A DNA stretch of 13,672 nucleotides. It comes from a virus. Every line of letters starts with the position of its first letter. Within the stretch, counting starts at the first letter, position 1. The stretch lies in UHGV virus genome UHGV-0140246. One strand, given 5' to 3'. The notes beneath the pieces are model-generated. The model was not told where the DNA came from. It saw nothing but the letters and a program-made list of their open reading frames with translations, and searched no databases. Both the position numbers and the translations under genes were made by a program. This document shows positions 3,435 through 11,383 of this stretch, piece after piece.

Positions 3435-3747
3435 TATGTCAAATTACCAGTACCTGATTAATCCGCATTTTAACTGTGAGCATGATATTGCTAAAAAGGT
3501 TTATTCCGCTGCGGATGGGGCTACTGACAATATATCAATGGCTGTTGCGTCAATTGGTAGCCTGATGTGGCATGCGTCAGAAAATGAGGACTATGACGAA
3601 AAGGCCATGCGCATTGATATGGGTAATATTGGTTTGTTACTGGCAATGCTTGGACATTTTGATATTTCGTTACGGTGCACCATTGAAAATGCCACAGATG
3701 CATTAAATGCTATAAAGAAAGCGAATACTGATTCAAATCGGGGATAA
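3427..3747 (+). CDS. Hypothetical protein (106 aa)
   Basis: ORF overlaps the icd-like stop (ATGCCTGA); AGGGGG Shine-Dalgarno 7 nt upstream; lower GC than neighbours by eye. Confidence 0.55.
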   Translation: MPDMSNYQYLINPHFNCEHDIAKKVYSAADGATDNISMAVASIGSLMWHASENEDYDEKAMRIDMGNIGLLLAMLGHFDISLRCTIENATDALNAIKKANTDSNRG

Positions 3748-3753
3748 ATAATC

Positions 3754-4053
3754 ATGAGAACATATTTATCTGGCTTGACTGCCAGCGGTTATGCACACCC
3801 CAAAATTATCCCCGGCGCTATTTATCTGGATAAGAACGGTAACAGAGTAACGGTAAAAGAACTGATGTTTGACCGTGTGTATTTTATTCGTGATGGCTAT
3901 TCATTTCATAGTTCGCTGAACGTGGAGATCTTTATTAGCAGATTCAGGCGGGAAATCCCGCTTTCCAGAAAAAACCATGTGTCACGTGTGAATGTGGATA
4001 AAAAACTACAGGAACTGAAAAACATGATTGCCGCGTGGAGAGAGCAGAAATGA
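3754..4053 (+). CDS. Hypothetical protein (99 aa)
   Basis: ORF whose stop overlaps the start of the primase gene (ATGA at 4050-4053). Confidence 0.55.
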   Translation: MRTYLSGLTASGYAHPKIIPGAIYLDKNGNRVTVKELMFDRVYFIRDGYSFHSSLNVEIFISRFRREIPLSRKNHVSRVNVDKKLQELKNMIAAWREQK

Positions 4054-5867
4054 AAAAAGCGCCAAATTTAAAACACCAGCCGCGTGACAAAATGACGGAA
4101 GTCATCATTTTTGCGGGTAGTGATGCGTGGGCACATGCGAAGCAGTGGCAGGAACAGGACGGGCGACTGGCTGGCGATAACGTGCCTCCTGTCTGGCTTG
4201 GAGAGCAACAACTTGCCGAACTGGACAACCTGCAAATCGTACCGGACGGACGCTATCGCGTGCGTCTCTATCAGGCGGGGTTATTGCGTCCGGGGCTTGT
4301 TAATACCATCGGGCAGAAACTGGCAGCGGCAGGTGTCAGGGATGCTGATTATTACCCTGAAGGAATGCACAGCCAGAAACGGGAGAACTGGCGCGAATAT
4401 CTGGAACGTGAGCGGGGAGAGCTGGCGGAAAAGAAAAAGGTAGTTGAACTGCCTGTAAAGAAAAAAGAGCGGGTAAAAGACGATAACGCTTCATCACTGG
4501 CGCTTAACCAGATGGGAGCAAGTCAACGCGGCGAAGTTCTCCTGGCACATTATGGCGGTGAACTGGCGATTCATGCCGACTCTGACACTGTTCACCATTA
4601 CAACGGCGTTGTATGGGAGCCGGTTCAGGATAAAGAGTTACAGCGTGCTATGGCGCAGATTTTCATTGATGCGGAGATCAGCTATTCGCAGAACGCCATT
4701 AAATCGGCGGTCGATACCATGAAGTTAAGTTTGCCTGTAATGGGGAATACAGCCCGTAACCTGATTGGATTCAGTAACGGGGTATTTGATACCAGAACAG
4801 GTAATTTTCGGGAGCATAACAAAAACGACTGGTTGTTAATTGCCAGTGAATTACCTTTCAGCCCACCAGCAGAGGGGGAAACGCTGGCAACACATGCGCC
4901 GAATTTCTGGAAGTGGTTACGCCGTTCGGTGGCTGAGAATGACCGCAAGGCGGATCGCGTACTGGCTGCATTATTCATGGTGCTGGCGAACCGGTACGAC
5001 TGGCAGTTATTCATTGAGGTAACAGGTCCAGGGGGAAGTGGTAAAAGCGTGATGGCGGAGATTTGCACCATGCTGGCGGGTAAGGCCAACACAGTATCGG
5101 CAAGCATGAAGGCGCTGGAAGATGCAAGGGAACGCGCGTTAGTGGTTGGCTTTTCGCTGATTATCATGCCGGATATGACCCGCTACGCTGGTGATGGGGC
5201 AGGGATTAAGGCTATTACAGGCGGTGACAAGGTGGCAATTGACCCGAAACACAAAGCCCCCTACTCAACGCGTATTCCGGCAGTAGTGCTGGCGGTTAAC
5301 AATAACGCCATGTCATTCAGTGACCGCAGTGGGGGGATCTCACGTCGTCGGGTGATATTCAATTTTTCGGAAGTTGTACCGGAGAACGAACGTGATCCAA
5401 TGCTGGCGGAAAAAATAGAAGGTGAGCTGGCGGTAGTGATTCGCCATCTGCTTACACGGTTTGCTGACCAGGACGAAGCCAGACGCCTGTTATATGAGCA
5501 GCAGAAATCTGAAGAAGCACTGGCGATAAAGCGAGAGGGGGATTCGCTGGTGGACTTCTGCGGCTATCTCATGGCGTCGGTAATGTGTGATGGCCTGTTA
5601 GTGGGTAATGCTGAAATTGTGCCATTCAGCCCACGCAGGTATCTCTATCATGCCTATCTGGCTTATATGAGGGCACATGGGTTTGGTAAACCTGTAACAC
5701 TGACGCGCTTCGGTAAAGATATGCCGGGGGCAATGGCGGAATATGGCAGGGAGTATATGAAACGGAAAACGAAGCACGGTTTGCGTTCAAACGTGACACT
5801 GACGGAGGAATCAGAAGACTGGATGCCATCATGTGTATCGGTCACTAATGACGATAGCAAAAATTAA
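4050..5867 (+). CDS. Primase/helicase replication protein (P4 alpha-like, P-loop NTPase); start probably ATG 4050 rather than GTG 4035
   Basis: About 605-aa ORF; Walker A motif TGPGGSGKS in the central region; GGAGAG Shine-Dalgarno before ATG 4050; an iteron cluster lies immediately downstream. Confidence 0.7.
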   Translation: MKKAPNLKHQPRDKMTEVIIFAGSDAWAHAKQWQEQDGRLAGDNVPPVWLGEQQLAELDNLQIVPDGRYRVRLYQAGLLRPGLVNTIGQKLAAAGVRDADYYPEGMHSQKRENWREYLERERGELAEKKKVVELPVKKKERVKDDNASSLALNQMGASQRGEVLLAHYGGELAIHADSDTVHHYNGVVWEPVQDKELQRAMAQIFIDAEISYSQNAIKSAVDTMKLSLPVMGNTARNLIGFSNGVFDTRTGNFREHNKNDWLLIASELPFSPPAEGETLATHAPNFWKWLRRSVAENDRKADRVLAALFMVLANRYDWQLFIEVTGPGGSGKSVMAEICTMLAGKANTVSASMKALEDARERALVVGFSLIIMPDMTRYAGDGAGIKAITGGDKVAIDPKHKAPYSTRIPAVVLAVNNNAMSFSDRSGGISRRRVIFNFSEVVPENERDPMLAEKIEGELAVVIRHLLTRFADQDEARRLLYEQQKSEEALAIKREGDSLVDFCGYLMASVMCDGLLVGNAEIVPFSPRRYLYHAYLAYMRAHGFGKPVTLTRFGKDMPGAMAEYGREYMKRKTKHGLRSNVTLTEESEDWMPSCVSVTNDDSKN

Positions 5868-5878
5868 ACTTATGGAAT

Positions 5879-6111
5879 AACTGTTCACCACTGTTCACCC
5901 TGTCATAAATATCTTTTGTATCAGTATGTTATAGGGTGAACAGTTATTTATGAACTGTTCACCAAACTATTCACTGTTCACCTTTTTGATTGTTTATTGA
6001 GCTTCAAGGGTGAACAGTGGTGAACAGTTGGTGAATAGTTTTTGTGAAACTGTTCACCCCTTAACATTATGAATTAAAAGATAAAATATCAAAAGGTGAA
6101 CAGGTGAAGGG
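5879..6111. repeat. Iteron cluster, candidate origin of replication: about 11 copies of TGTTCACC / GGTGAACA in both orientations within an AT-rich intergenic region
   Basis: Forward copies at 5882-5889, 5892-5899, 5956-5963, 5975-5982, 6051-6058; reverse copies at 5935-5942, 6009-6016, 6019-6026, 6095-6102; degenerate copies at 6030-6037 and 6104-6111. Confidence 0.75.
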
Positions 6112-6154: not shown

Positions 6155-6400
6155 ATGACAGCGAAGCACACAAAAAAATCACAATCGCACGCCCTTGATT
6201 TGACGGAACACTGGTTAAGGGTGTCGATAAAAATCATCGACCGCAACGCCGGGGAAGGATATGCGAAAGCACATCCCGAACTGATTAGCTCATTCATGAC
6301 AACGGCAGCTGCAAACTTTGCCACGCTGACAGAACGGGAGATTGCCGAAGCGGAACAGGTGACAACCATCAACGTTAAAACCGGAGAGCAGACAGCATGA
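6155..6400 (+). CDS. Hypothetical protein (81 aa)
   Basis: ORF co-oriented with the operon; its stop overlaps the SSB start (ATGA at 6397-6400); weak ribosome-binding site. Confidence 0.45.
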   Translation: MTAKHTKKSQSHALDLTEHWLRVSIKIIDRNAGEGYAKAHPELISSFMTTAAANFATLTEREIAEAEQVTTINVKTGEQTA

Positions 6401-6819
6401 CAGCACAGATAGCAGCTTACGGGCGGCTGGTGGCTGACCCGCAGTTAAAGACCACCAGCAAGGGCACACAAATGGCTATGGCAAGCATGGCGGTCCACCT
6501 GCCGTGCAATCAGGCAGATGACGGACAGGCGACGATGTGGTTATCCGTCCTGGCGTTTGGCAGACAGGCCGACGCACTGGCAAAACACCACAAAGGCGAG
6601 CTGGTGAGCGTGGCGGGTAACATGCAGGTAAGCCAGTGGACAGGCCAGAACGGGGAAACGCGGCAGGGCTGGCAGGTTATCGCAGACAGCGTAATCAGTG
6701 CCAGAACGGCGCGACCTGGTGGCAAAAAAGGCCAGCAGGGTCAGGCTACTGACGCTCTAAATAGGGCTAAGCAACAGGCGGGGAATGATGATCCATACGG
6801 GGATAACATACCCTTTTAG
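6397..6819 (+). CDS. Single-stranded DNA-binding protein-like (SSB-like)
   Basis: 140-aa ORF; N-terminus MTAQIAAYGRLVADPQLKTTSKG resembles the start of an SSB OB-fold; Gly/Gln-rich linker; C-terminus DDPYGDNIPF resembles the acidic SSB tail ending in IPF. Confidence 0.65.
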   Translation: MTAQIAAYGRLVADPQLKTTSKGTQMAMASMAVHLPCNQADDGQATMWLSVLAFGRQADALAKHHKGELVSVAGNMQVSQWTGQNGETRQGWQVIADSVISARTARPGGKKGQQGQATDALNRAKQQAGNDDPYGDNIPF

Positions 6820-6836
6820 CGATAACAGGGGGATAC

Positions 6837-7085
6837 ATGCCAGTGACATTTGAAGAAGTTCAGCAACATAAAAAGTTTCATGGTATTGATGATCTGGAAA
6901 CCACGACAGCAAAAAAATATCGCCGTCTGCTTTCTTCCGATGCGTTATTTGTTGTGGATCATCATGATTTTCTGCGCAGCTCACTGACCGGGGAAATTTT
7001 CGCAACCAACCGTGAGCAGGTGGAAGCGATGATCGAATATTTGTGGAAAATAAGGCGCAGAATGCGCGATCCCGTGAAACAGTAA
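6837..7085 (+). CDS. Hypothetical protein (82 aa)
   Basis: ORF preceded by GGGGGA Shine-Dalgarno; followed 10 nt later by a strong terminator. Confidence 0.5.
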   Translation: MPVTFEEVQQHKKFHGIDDLETTTAKKYRRLLSSDALFVVDHHDFLRSSLTGEIFATNREQVEAMIEYLWKIRRRMRDPVKQ

Positions 7086-7094
7086 AGCGATAAA

Positions 7095-7122
7095 GGCCCG
7101 GATTTTTCCCGGGTCTTTTTTT
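7095..7122 (+). terminator. Rho-independent terminator ending the replication operon
   Basis: Stem GGCCCGG / CCGGGTC (7095-7101 and 7109-7115) with a 7-nt loop, followed by seven T (7116-7122). Confidence 0.7.
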
Positions 7123-7359
7123 CAGGTTTTGTAAATTATTTGTTCGTGGTTGTTTCTGGCTGTTCAGTGATTCTGGCTGATATTTACATACTGATTTTTA
7201 TGTATATGTTGGCGTGTGGCACTCAGACGTGAGCCGCCACAATGCCGCCTGACCCCCTGCGCGATGCCGGGTTGATCTGCGAGATGCCGAGAGTGTCGGG
7301 CGGCGCTCCCTCCGTGTTGGTTTCACGTCCTGAATCTTAACCAATACGAGAAAACCTTC

Positions 7360-8529
7360 ATGAAGAAATTAATCGAACTCCGCCAGCAAAAAACCGCCCT
7401 GAAAAACCAGATGCGATCCCTGCTGGAAAAAGCCGACAGTGAAAACCGCAGCCTGAACGATGACGAGGGCAAACAGTTTGATGAACTGCGTGCAAAAGCC
7501 GACTCCCTCGACACAGAAATTTCCCGCCTCGAGTCTGTGGCTGATGAAGAACGCAGCAAGCCAGGAACGGGCATCCAGAAATTATCATCTGATGAATTGC
7601 GTAACTACATCGTAACCGGAGATGTGCGATCACTGTCCACCAGCACTGACAGCGGCAGGGATGGCGGATATACCGTAATTCCTGAGCTCGATCGCGAAGT
7701 CATGCGCCAGCTACAGGATGACAGTGTTATGCGCGTGATCGCGACCGTGAAGACTGCAAAATCAAATGAGTTTCAGAAACTGGTTTCCACTGGCGGCGCA
7801 ACTGTAGGACGAGGCACAGAAGGCAGCGCACGCAGTGAAACCAACACCCCGAAAATTGAACGCGTAACCATCAAGCTGAATCCGATCTACGCCTACCCGA
7901 AAACCACGCAGGAAATCCTTGATTTTTCAGAGGTGGATATTCTGGGCTGGTTATCCTCCGAAATTGCCGACACGTTCGCCAGCACCGAAGAGGATGATTT
8001 TGTTAATGGCGACGGTAACGGCAAGCCGAAAGGCTTCATGGCTTACACCCGTGCGGCGACCAGTGACAAAACCCGCGCTTTTGGCACCATTGAAAAAATG
8101 GTAGCGGCAAGTGGAACCGCCATTACAGCGGACGAACTGATCGACATTCTCTACAAGCTGAAAGCGAAATACCGCAAAAATGCCGTCTGGGTGATGAACT
8201 CGGGCACGGCAGGGACACTACAGAAGCTGAAAAATGAGAACGGCGATTATATCTGGCGCGACAGCCTTAAAGAAGGTGCGCCGGATATGTTGCTTGGTCG
8301 TCCTGTTTACTGCCTGGAGTCCATGCCGGACATCGGCGCAGGAAAAGCACCGCTAGCGGTTGGCGATTTCAGTCGTGGTTATTTCATCGTTGATCATGTA
8401 ACAGGGATTCGCACCCGACCGGACAACATTACTGAACCCGGATTCTACAAGGTCCACACGGATAAATATCTGGGCGGTGGTGTGGTGGATTCAAACGCCA
8501 TCAAAATTCTGGAAATGAAAGCTGGCTAG
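7360..8529 (+). CDS. Major capsid protein, HK97 family
   Basis: 389-aa ORF; N-terminal coiled-coil-like region (MKKLIELRQQKTALKNQMRSLLEKAD...) followed by GGYTVIPELDREVMRQLQDDSVMRVIATVKT, typical of HK97-fold capsid proteins. Confidence 0.8.
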   Translation: MKKLIELRQQKTALKNQMRSLLEKADSENRSLNDDEGKQFDELRAKADSLDTEISRLESVADEERSKPGTGIQKLSSDELRNYIVTGDVRSLSTSTDSGRDGGYTVIPELDREVMRQLQDDSVMRVIATVKTAKSNEFQKLVSTGGATVGRGTEGSARSETNTPKIERVTIKLNPIYAYPKTTQEILDFSEVDILGWLSSEIADTFASTEEDDFVNGDGNGKPKGFMAYTRAATSDKTRAFGTIEKMVAASGTAITADELIDILYKLKAKYRKNAVWVMNSGTAGTLQKLKNENGDYIWRDSLKEGAPDMLLGRPVYCLESMPDIGAGKAPLAVGDFSRGYFIVDHVTGIRTRPDNITEPGFYKVHTDKYLGGGVVDSNAIKILEMKAG

Positions 8530-8540
8530 TCATGAGTAAG

Positions 8541-8563
8541 GAGGAGGCTGCGGCCTCCTTTTT
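8541..8563 (+). terminator. Hairpin plus T-tract immediately after the capsid gene; candidate partial terminator/attenuator
   Basis: Stem AGGAGGC / GCCTCCT (8542-8548 and 8553-8559), 4-nt loop, then TTTT (8560-8563). Confidence 0.45.
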
Positions 8564-8583
8564 CAGCTTTATGGAGTACACCG

Positions 8584-11264: not shown

Positions 11265-11383
11265 GGCCGTCAGAGGGGGTGGGGGTGGTTTTCAGGACGA
11301 AACCGTCCCTGCCGGACACCGACCGCCCCCTCAAATTTTTGTGCACGGTAATTTTTTTGAAAATAATTGGGCGAAAAAAGAAC
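11265..11383. other. Candidate cos/packaging-signal region between the HNH gene and terS
   Basis: G-runs CAGAGGGGGTGGGGGTGG (11271-11288); nested inverted repeats GAGGGGG (11273-11279) / CCCCCTC (11326-11332) and GGACG / CGTCC (11295-11308); followed by AT-rich T-tracts 11336-11357. Confidence 0.4.

Follow-up and report, generated by a model that had tools for sequence, protein, structure and literature searches.

A conserved promoter and a probable three-hairpin leader RNA precede the capsid gene of phage-inducible chromosomal islands of the capsid-forming class

The virus genome UHGV-0140246 (13,672 nucleotides; hereafter the window) is a 13.7-kb Escherichia coli capsid-forming phage-inducible chromosomal island (cf-PICI), a class of satellites whose gene set has been described with EcCIEDL933 as the prototype (10.1101/2022.09.08.507074). 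Members carry int, alpA and a replication module together with their own HK97 capsid, protease, portal, connectors, HNH, TerS and TerL, have no tail or lysis genes and measure 10-18 kb (10.1101/2022.09.08.507074, 10.1101/2025.02.11.637232), and the window has this composition. Its left part encodes an integrase, an AlpA-family helix-turn-helix protein (2509-2763; Pfam Phage_AlpA), a D5-type primase (4035-5867), SSB (6397-6819) and an 82-aa protein (6837-7085), with Pfam matches for AlpA, the primase and SSB. The packaging module follows in the order HK97 capsid, protease, portal, connector, HNH, TerS, TerL. Its first gene, on the + strand at 7360-8529, encodes the HK97-type major capsid protein according to the RefSeq annotation of the E. 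coli KSC9 locus, with which positions 6800-7700 share 99.9% identity. Here we describe the interval between the 82-aa gene and the capsid gene, 7123-7359, from which, as the initial annotation had proposed, the capsid (packaging) operon is controlled. We consider it very probable that this region consists of a promoter followed by a transcribed, structured cis-regulatory leader.

Taken from the window sequence alone, the features of this region do not exceed chance: a consensus scan found one promoter-like site where 1.0 is expected, there are three 6-nt inverted repeats against 1.5 expected (p = 0.23), and the fold z-score is -2.25. The case was therefore built on comparison with relatives. 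It covered over 300 related islands, which represent at least 15 genera; the sequences collected were five divergent E. coli islands (L001-L005), 80 loci retrieved through the capsid protein from one-genome-per-species contigs (Enterobacterales, Orbaceae and Pasteurellaceae), more than 200 viral and metagenomic contigs collected with a 22-mer from the first leader hairpin, and 41 EDL933-type contigs. Deduplication yielded 161 distinct promoter sequences and 177 leaders with both the first and the third of three hairpins, which we call H1, H2 and H3. Across hundreds of islands the promoter hexamers and all three hairpins, including H1, which is the inverted repeat singled out in the initial annotation, are conserved or covary.

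The region is preceded by the intrinsic terminator of the upstream 82-aa gene (7095-7122, + strand), a GGCCCGG-loop-CCGGGTC hairpin with a T7 run that had been correctly recognized from the start and that shields the capsid promoter from read-through. The 82-aa gene itself corresponds to phrog_1957 and is 43% identical to the gene at the same place in an EDL933-type island (L003 5750-5974). Downstream of the terminator, GC content rises from 0.32 in 7123-7210 to 0.70 in 7211-7310, the GC-rich block noted initially. At the end of the AT-rich part lies a sigma-70-type core promoter (7183-7210, + strand). The initial annotation had offered a weak pair, TTTACA with TATATG; both hexamers are present (7183-7188 and 7203-7208), but the consensus scan favours TATGTT at 7205-7210 as the -10 element, at a 16-bp spacing from TTTACA as the -35 element. 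In this corrected form the weak pair is a real conserved promoter. In all 161 distinct sequences the -10 element, T-A-T-n-T-T, retains its first T, its A and its final T; the -35 element has the form TTT(A/T)C, and 16 bp separate the two throughout. The window thus has the 16-18 bp spacer, the A at -10 position 2 and the T at position 6 of a sigma-70 promoter. From the position of the -10 element, transcription is predicted to start at 7216-7218 (about 7216).

Two further elements lie upstream. The first is the TTTGTAAATTATTTGT box (7128-7143, + strand), with the core TGTAAAT at 7130-7136, about -88 from the first G of the GGCAC in H1, which is a putative site for an activator or an architectural protein. 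As a 16-mer the box occurs once in the window. The TGTAAAT box is invariant in the five divergent E. coli islands and in 23 islands that span the genera, lies 88-89 bp upstream of GGCAC in 145 of the 161 distinct promoters, and is present too in Xenorhabdus and Pasteurellaceae islands that do not have the long leader. The second element is a series of direct repeats, TTGTTC (7140), TTGTTT (7150) and CTGTTC (7160), at an exact spacing of 10 bp (7140-7165, + strand; about -77 to -52 from the predicted start). The same phased repeats recur in other promoters, which we call class I, whereas in class II promoters their place is taken by CATGTTTAC/GTGATTAC repeats, after which comes a covarying hairpin that carries a T-run. 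This class II hairpin is GC-rich and terminator-like, spans -60 to -35 between the upstream repeats and the -10 element, and occupies the place of the -35 region of the window (L011, L018-L021, L025 and many IMG/VR loci). Because the box and core promoter are kept where the upstream gene is on the opposite strand (L005), and also in Xenorhabdus and Pasteurellaceae islands with only a short leader, the promoter belongs to the packaging module.

Given the weak -35 element and the conserved elements at -50 to -90, we infer that the promoter is activator-dependent. The candidate activator site is likely to be the TGTAAAT box plus the phased repeats (7128-7165), which lie at a fixed distance from the -10 element. 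AlpA is an activator of PICI genes that activates its own promoter and downstream genes (PMC6092414), and overexpression of alpA by itself drives EcCIEDL933 reproduction according to a preprint (10.1101/2025.02.11.637232). Since alpA overexpression suffices, the activating signal would lie downstream of AlpA with no need for a helper late activator, and we regard AlpA, or a product made after AlpA induction, as the leading candidate. The initial annotation had placed helper- or AlpA-dependent activation here; helper late activators appear unnecessary. Its failure to find an Ogr/Delta-type site was borne out, as 7086-7359 contains zero matches to TGT-N10-14-ACA.

Repeats of a related kind are seen elsewhere in some islands. 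About 300 bp upstream of alpA, several islands have five 10-bp-phased GAACAA(C) repeats (L002 at about 3540-3600; L254; L208, L249 and L088), GAACAA being the reverse complement of the TTGTTC repeats of the capsid promoter, and further lineages have TGTTCATC repeats between int and alpA. In a strict scan, phased TGTTC/GAACAA arrays upstream of alpA were confined to a few lineages. A single protein that binds both the alpA-upstream and the capsid-promoter regions is a lead suggested by these motifs, which would also favour direct binding of AlpA at the capsid promoter.

Several other uses of the region were considered and set aside. A replication initiator acting on the TGTTC repeats was rejected: the iterons of the putative origin (CTGTTCACC) are similar, yet they vary from island to island without following the promoter repeats. 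By inspection, a sigma-54 promoter formed from the TGGCAC of H1 is missing its -12 element and EDL933-type islands have no TGGCAC, and the box is a poor match to the IHF consensus WATCAANNNNTTR. The consensus scan found no promoter or terminator on the minus strand that would serve an antisense RNA. A 10-codon ORF, ATG-TAT-ATC...TGA (7200 to 7230-7232), ends inside H1, and many relatives lack its ATG, since the bases concerned belong to the -10 element; among the short leader ORFs of the relatives we found no conserved leader peptide.

From 7216 onward the sequence probably encodes a leader RNA of about 145 nt made of three hairpins. H1, (U)GUGGC-A-CUCA[GACG]UGAG-CC-GCCAC(A), lies at the 5′ end of the transcript (7215-7241, + strand; 5′ strand segment GGCACUCA), its first base being the predicted start, and coincides with the inverted repeat TGTGGC-N15-GCCACA of the initial annotation, which is located as described. 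Its predicted energy is -13.0 kcal/mol, and its 22-mer core occurs in the more than 200 contigs. H2 (7244-7304, + strand) consists of a basal stem, GCCGCCUGAC/GUCGGGCGGC, and a variable apex that ranges among relatives from a simple loop to a three-way junction. The repeated motifs reported initially, GATGCCGGG (7263-7271) and GATGCCGAG (7283-7291), are present in this apex, where they belong to a 13-nt direct repeat (7257-7269 and 7277-7289), but the GATGCCG repeat that they represent is lineage-specific, being found only in E. coli leaders of the KSC9/L005 type. Alignments then place a C/U-rich single-stranded linker, GCUCCCUCC (7305-7313, + strand), which is CCUCC-like in most relatives. 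H3 (7319-7356, + strand) lies beside the start codon, with the 5′ arm GGUUUC-A-CGU(C) at 7319-7329 and the 3′ arm ACG-A-GAAAACC at 7346-7356. The 3′ arm holds the sole purine-rich candidates for a ribosome-binding site, and in the family-type H3 the segment ACG-GAAACC(A), which lies 5-16 nt ahead of the AUG, is paired. Downstream of H3 the window reads CCUUCAUG and has no U-tract there, so that H3 lacks the hairpin-plus-U-tract form of a terminator.

Covariation was evaluated in a MAFFT alignment of 37 diverse leaders, with pairing partners slid by 1-3 columns and with 500 shuffles as controls. The three hairpins are paired in 93.1% of cells, as against 35-46% in the slid controls; double changes occur at 16 pairs, a number reached in 0 of the 500 shuffles, and RNAalifold recovers the same three hairpins without guidance. 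H1 is nearly invariant and 99.4% paired, with compensatory changes at 3 of 9 pairs (for instance GUGGC/GCCAC to GUGAC/GUCAC, and CUCA/UGAG to CUCC/GGAG). H2 has changes on both sides at 13 of its 13 basal pairs, and among 116 distinct H1-to-H3 spacers nearly all form one long hairpin from many different stem sequences; the stem sequence is free across these versions, and only the shape of H2 is selected. H3 keeps its sequence and is 98.1% paired, and 5 of its 10 pairs vary on one side only, as G-U. The G-U changes in the leader fit an RNA from the + strand.

These patterns also bear on the suggestion that the GC-rich block is where an activator binds DNA. The block lies downstream of the predicted start and its pairs are kept by compensatory and G-U changes, so we do not read it as the DNA site of an activator; it behaves as a transcribed, folded RNA. 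We also give very little credence to a related reading, in which TGTGGC-N15-GCCACA is an operator for a dimeric repressor or activator over the start site and its symmetric changes record co-evolution of the half-sites. The position, +1 to +27, is a classical one for an operator, and the arms do change symmetrically (GTGGC/GCCAC to GTGAC/GTCAC, and ATGGC/GCCAT). The halves, however, do not mirror each other: the left has one unpaired base and the right has two, a difference that is conserved. The U-G pair in EDL933-type H1 would be a half-site mismatch, the adjoining H2 and H3 are conserved in the manner of RNA, and no universal DNA-binding regulator co-occurs among the 29 near-complete islands whose proteins we compared.

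The leader belongs to no RNA family that we could match. Searches of Rfam returned zero matches in the window at gathering or E-value thresholds, and likewise none for the other leader types; in 6950-7500 the best sub-threshold matches cover only the upstream terminator, through the terminator parts of leader models. We found the leader in more than 200 contigs across Enterobacterales, solely beside cf-PICI capsid genes. Records labelled as phages that carry it encode capsids about 77% identical to that of the window and include 15-17 kb records that resemble packaged cf-PICIs, and the leader match is absent from records of true phages, whose capsids are about 37% identical. In three islands (L228 at 3937-4034, L251 and L313), H1 with the promoter, or H1 with part of H2, occurs without H3 and with no capsid gene directly downstream; these leaders appear to be truncated or rearranged.

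The loop and 3′ strand of H1, GACGUGAGCC (7226-7235, + strand; GACGUGAG-CC), are complementary to the 5′ arm of H3 at 7319-7329, GGUUUCACGUC (GG-U-UUCACGUC), in which UUUCACGUC faces GACGUGAG; the leader therefore has two possible folds. The long-range helix has 10 bp and is paired in 99.7% of cells in the 37 leaders, with one compensatory pair (U-A to G-C in 4 of the 37) and one G-U change. A U to G change at 7230 in H1 is matched by A to C at 7325, the unpaired bulge of H3, in all six sequences that have it, with one exception elsewhere (L248). The duplex reaches about 14 bp in the window, with an energy of -19 kcal/mol, and the helix forms in the predicted fold once the 5′ strand of H1 is blocked. 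An upstream segment thus has the exclusive choice of partners that is typical of an antiterminator.

Complementarity of this kind is found in leaders of unrelated sequence. The EDL933-type leader is beyond the reach of a covariance model built on the window-type leader, but its H1 carries CCAGGACGC, a perfect 9-nt complement of GCGUCCUGG in the 5′ arm of its H3. This H3, GUCCUGG..CCAGGAC followed by U7-8 and then the AUG, is terminator-like and holds an AGGA ribosome site. Additional EDL933-type sequences gave no further covariation because they are too alike. In a third type, from Xenorhabdus and Photorhabdus, 8 nt at the 5′ end are complementary to a hairpin by the ribosome site. For three of four leader types, the energy of a duplex of the first 32 nt with the last 60 nt surpasses that of 1000 shuffles (p = 0.011-0.028). 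Shorter leaders are also seen. Five Pasteurellaceae loci (L056, L072, L078, L075 and L080) keep the TGTAAAT box, TTTACA and TATCTT upstream of a leader of about 55 nt in which a small hairpin (GGGCUACUUGUAGCC) comes first and a strong Shine-Dalgarno sequence is present; in most Xenorhabdus islands the leader is A-rich, unstructured and about 33 nt long.

The 5′ arm of H3 has one more complement. In the capsid coding sequence, GTGAAACCAACAC at 7835-7847 (codons SETNT) is the exact reverse complement of leader positions 7314-7326. Islands of the L007 type have TGAAACCAGC in the same codons, complementary to GCTGGTTTCA in their leader, T:A being replaced by C:G in both partners. Other lineages have no leader-to-coding-sequence complement beyond GAAACC, and about 0.03 matches are expected for a 13-mer. 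The match may reflect a long-range pairing between leader and coding sequence, or it may be chance.

A simpler account of the leader is a passive 5′ untranslated region, in which H1 and the other hairpins protect the long late mRNA from decay that depends on its 5′ end and set a fixed low level of translation, and the complementarity of H1 and H3 is incidental. Stem-loops at the 5′ end are known mRNA stabilizers, of the ompA type, and H1 sits exactly at the predicted 5′ end, as does the small hairpin that begins the short leaders of Pasteurellaceae cf-PICIs. The predicted minimum fold is always H1+H2+H3 (in all nine representatives), and the 29 near-complete islands share no universal trigger protein outside the packaging module. 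A stabilizer, however, needs structure rather than a given sequence, yet the H1 loop, the bulges and the 5′ arm of H3 are nearly invariant from genus to genus, among islands whose capsids are only 60-77% identical. The covariation of an H1 base with the H3 bulge base and the recurrence of 5′/3′ complementarity in three unrelated leader types also go against incidental pairing, and we consider the passive account unlikely, though it is the most serious of the alternatives.

The conservation of unpaired bases would suit a different explanation, that H1 and/or H3 are operators for an RNA-binding protein (a capsid or scaffold domain, TerS or a host protein) in autogenous repression or activation, with the alternative helix being secondary. 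H1 and the 5′ arm of H3 are extremely conserved, unpaired bases included, and H3, beside the start codon, has a conserved bulged A. The packaging-module proteins are the only ones universal to leader-bearing islands, a gene for a ProQ/FinO protein lies just upstream in some islands, and leader-bearing loci are enriched for a phrog_1957 homologue ahead of the capsid gene (130 of 253, as against 1 of 55 leaderless loci). Nevertheless, only about half of the loci with the leader have phrog_1957, and structural genes aside no candidate protein occurs in every leader-bearing island. An operator would also leave the H1/H3 complementarity of unrelated leader types unexplained, which makes this explanation improbable in our estimation.

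We favour a reading in which an activator-dependent promoter is followed by an attenuator-like leader that probably gates the amount of capsid protein. The weak sigma-70 promoter (TTTACA-16-TATGTT) would need a factor on the TGTAAAT box and the phased TTGTTC repeats, 50-90 bp upstream, and transcription from about 7216 would then yield the leader of about 145 nt with H1 at its extreme 5′ end. H2 would act as a clamp, through structure only, that brings H1 and H3 close. In the OFF fold, H1+H2+H3, a family-type H3 would bury the weak ribosome-binding region and an EDL933-type H3 could terminate transcription; in the ON fold, the 5′ strand of H1 would be held or removed, its 3′ strand would invade H3, and the ribosome site would be freed. 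Capsid synthesis would thus stay low until some factor opens H1. What the comparison shows is conservation, covariation, a capacity for alternative pairing and the lack of a matching RNA family; where transcription starts, what activates it, which way the switch works and what triggers it are the parts of this scheme that we infer. A switch of this form needs a trigger because the OFF fold is more stable than the folds with the long-range helix, by 6-10 kcal/mol, and with only packaging proteins universal the candidate triggers are one of these proteins, some host factor or a feature of the transcription complex.

Apart from this energy difference, which itself counts against the scheme, several observations weigh on the other side. 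The start site was placed from sequence, not from transcripts. The AlpA allele does not track the class of promoter repeats, as one allele occurs with both classes, and the window and KSC9 share a promoter with AlpA proteins only 47% identical. H3 has zero compensatory pairs, and the single compensatory pair of the long-range helix comes from about two closely related lineages, with L248 as an exception. The 5′/3′ duplex energy of the window itself is not significant alone (p = 0.10). Among the 29 near-complete islands, no accessory regulator is universal that could serve as the trigger. Finally, the family-type H3 of the window is weak, at -3.7 kcal/mol, as against -11.5 kcal/mol for a window-specific alternative stem, CGUGUUGGUU/AACCAAUACG (7313-7322 / 7339-7348, + strand). 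This favoured, lineage-specific stem leaves GAGAAAACC unpaired, so occlusion of the ribosome site may not hold for the window's own sequence. On balance we judge the reading as a whole, an activator-dependent promoter and then an attenuator-like leader, to be evenly poised between right and wrong, and the specific H1/H3 switch to be a tentative proposal that we doubt somewhat more than we believe. A stronger version, in which a specific signal opens H1 in a riboswitch-like manner, so that an anti-sequestor or antiterminator strand is set free and capsid synthesis is switched on, and in which such gates evolved at least three times from unrelated sequences, in the window, EDL933 and Xenorhabdus/Photorhabdus types, strikes us as unlikely; its opening signal could be a packaging-module or host protein, or a modified state of the transcription complex.

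Beyond the capsid gene lies a second, strong terminator-like hairpin, GGAGGAGGC-UGCG-GCCUCC with U5 (8540-8566, + strand), flanked by the stop codon of the capsid gene (8529) and the start of the protease gene (8584). By its form it is an operon-internal terminator, which would reduce expression of the downstream packaging genes unless it is read through. This raises a further alternative, that H1 and H2 bind the elongating RNA polymerase and cause read-through of terminators such as this one, in the manner of the put RNAs of phage HK022, which act through the zinc-binding domain of the polymerase's beta' subunit to suppress terminators downstream. The put RNAs are about 70 nt long and have two stem-loops, with putL beginning at the 5′ end of its transcript, and for function they need particular bulges and non-canonical pairs in each of the stems (PMC9378689). 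The leader has two adjacent stem-loops, 2-4 nt apart, from the 5′ end of the transcript. However, its covariance model has no match in the HK022 genome at E <= 1, H2 varies freely in sequence and size whereas put needs specific features, and H3 and the H1/H3 complementarity would be left unaccounted for. A partial terminator after a capsid gene is, moreover, a commonplace means of setting stoichiometry. We regard a put-like function as very unlikely.

The island has further features away from the control region. Of 5426 complete E. coli genomes, 266 contain relatives, which are chromosomal in every case and sit at several integration sites, and RefSeq annotation borders the near-identical loci with host genes. 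Four copies of (A/T)CCAGAT(T/A)T at 2221-2290 lie upstream of two overlapping ORFs of the Xis/AlpA helix-turn-helix type (2362-2549 and 2509-2763), and 2221-2290 together with 2362-2763 may be an auto-regulated alpA promoter region. The AT-rich stretch 5868-6110 after the primase gene has about ten iteron copies, CTGTTCACC/GGTGAACAG, whose sequences vary among related islands, and is probably the replication origin of the island. A G-rich gap, CCGTCAGAGGGGGTGGGGGTGG..., lies at 11265-11383 between a 61-aa ORF (phrog_3173) that follows HNH and terS. HNH-dependent cos phages carry their cos site at this position. A cos site in 7123-7359 was considered and rejected; from gene order it is more likely to lie in this gap before terS.

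cf-PICIs make their own capsids and take only tails, and in the cf-PICI literature that we searched we found no description of the timing or dose of capsid production and no mention of a packaging-operon promoter or leader. The region offers testable parts for such a description: a promoter with an invariant box, a leader supported by covariation, and a specific pair of complementary strands in which mutation and compensation would reveal whether there is a post-transcriptional gate. The leader could also serve as a marker of this cf-PICI lineage and as a new entry in RNA family databases. If a riboswitch-like gate were true, it would couple capsid production of the satellite to the right moment of helper infection.

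Among known systems, late promoters controlled by Ogr of the helper P2 and Delta of its satellite P4 have a TGT-N12-ACA dyad at about -55, with the activator bound upstream of the -35 element. The capsid promoter resembles them as a weak late promoter of a structural operon, in a satellite or phage, that would need an activator upstream of -35, but in place of the dyad it has a TGTAAAT box at about -88 and direct repeats phased by 10 bp. It is carried by the same element family as the AlpA-activated promoters of Gram-negative PICIs (PMC6092414), although the AlpA allele is not matched to the repeats and the corresponding GAACAA/TGTTC arrays upstream of alpA are limited to some lineages. AlpA of Pseudomonas aeruginosa is an antiterminator that uses GGGACG between -35 and -10 together with a -10-like pause site (PMC9371919). 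Elements of the Q or P. aeruginosa AlpA type are absent from the capsid promoter, in which the spacer (7189-7204) is TACTGATTTTTATGTA and the initially transcribed GTGGCACTCAGACG has no TAnnnT-like hexamer. The put RNAs of HK022 are similar in having two stem-loops at the start of a transcript of a mobile element, upstream of an operon with a terminator-like hairpin. They differ in size (about 70 nt, as against about 90 nt for H1+H2, with H2 variable), and the leader has no sequence or model similarity to put, an H2 of free sequence and a third hairpin at the ribosome site.

The leader is closest to attenuators with competing hairpins. Classical examples follow the 1:2, 2:3, 3:4 logic of the trp/pyrBI type or translational attenuation of the ermC type. 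Like these, it has three segments with mutually exclusive pairings, in which an upstream element can pair with the 5′ arm of the last hairpin, and that last hairpin either could terminate (a stem and U7-8 before the AUG in the EDL933 type) or would cover the ribosome site (the family type). Unlike these, it has no conserved leader peptide and no known ligand, tRNA or protein, and H3 of the window is without a U-tract. A member of none of the families tested, the region would by this comparison work most like a competing-hairpin attenuator placed behind an activator-dependent late promoter.

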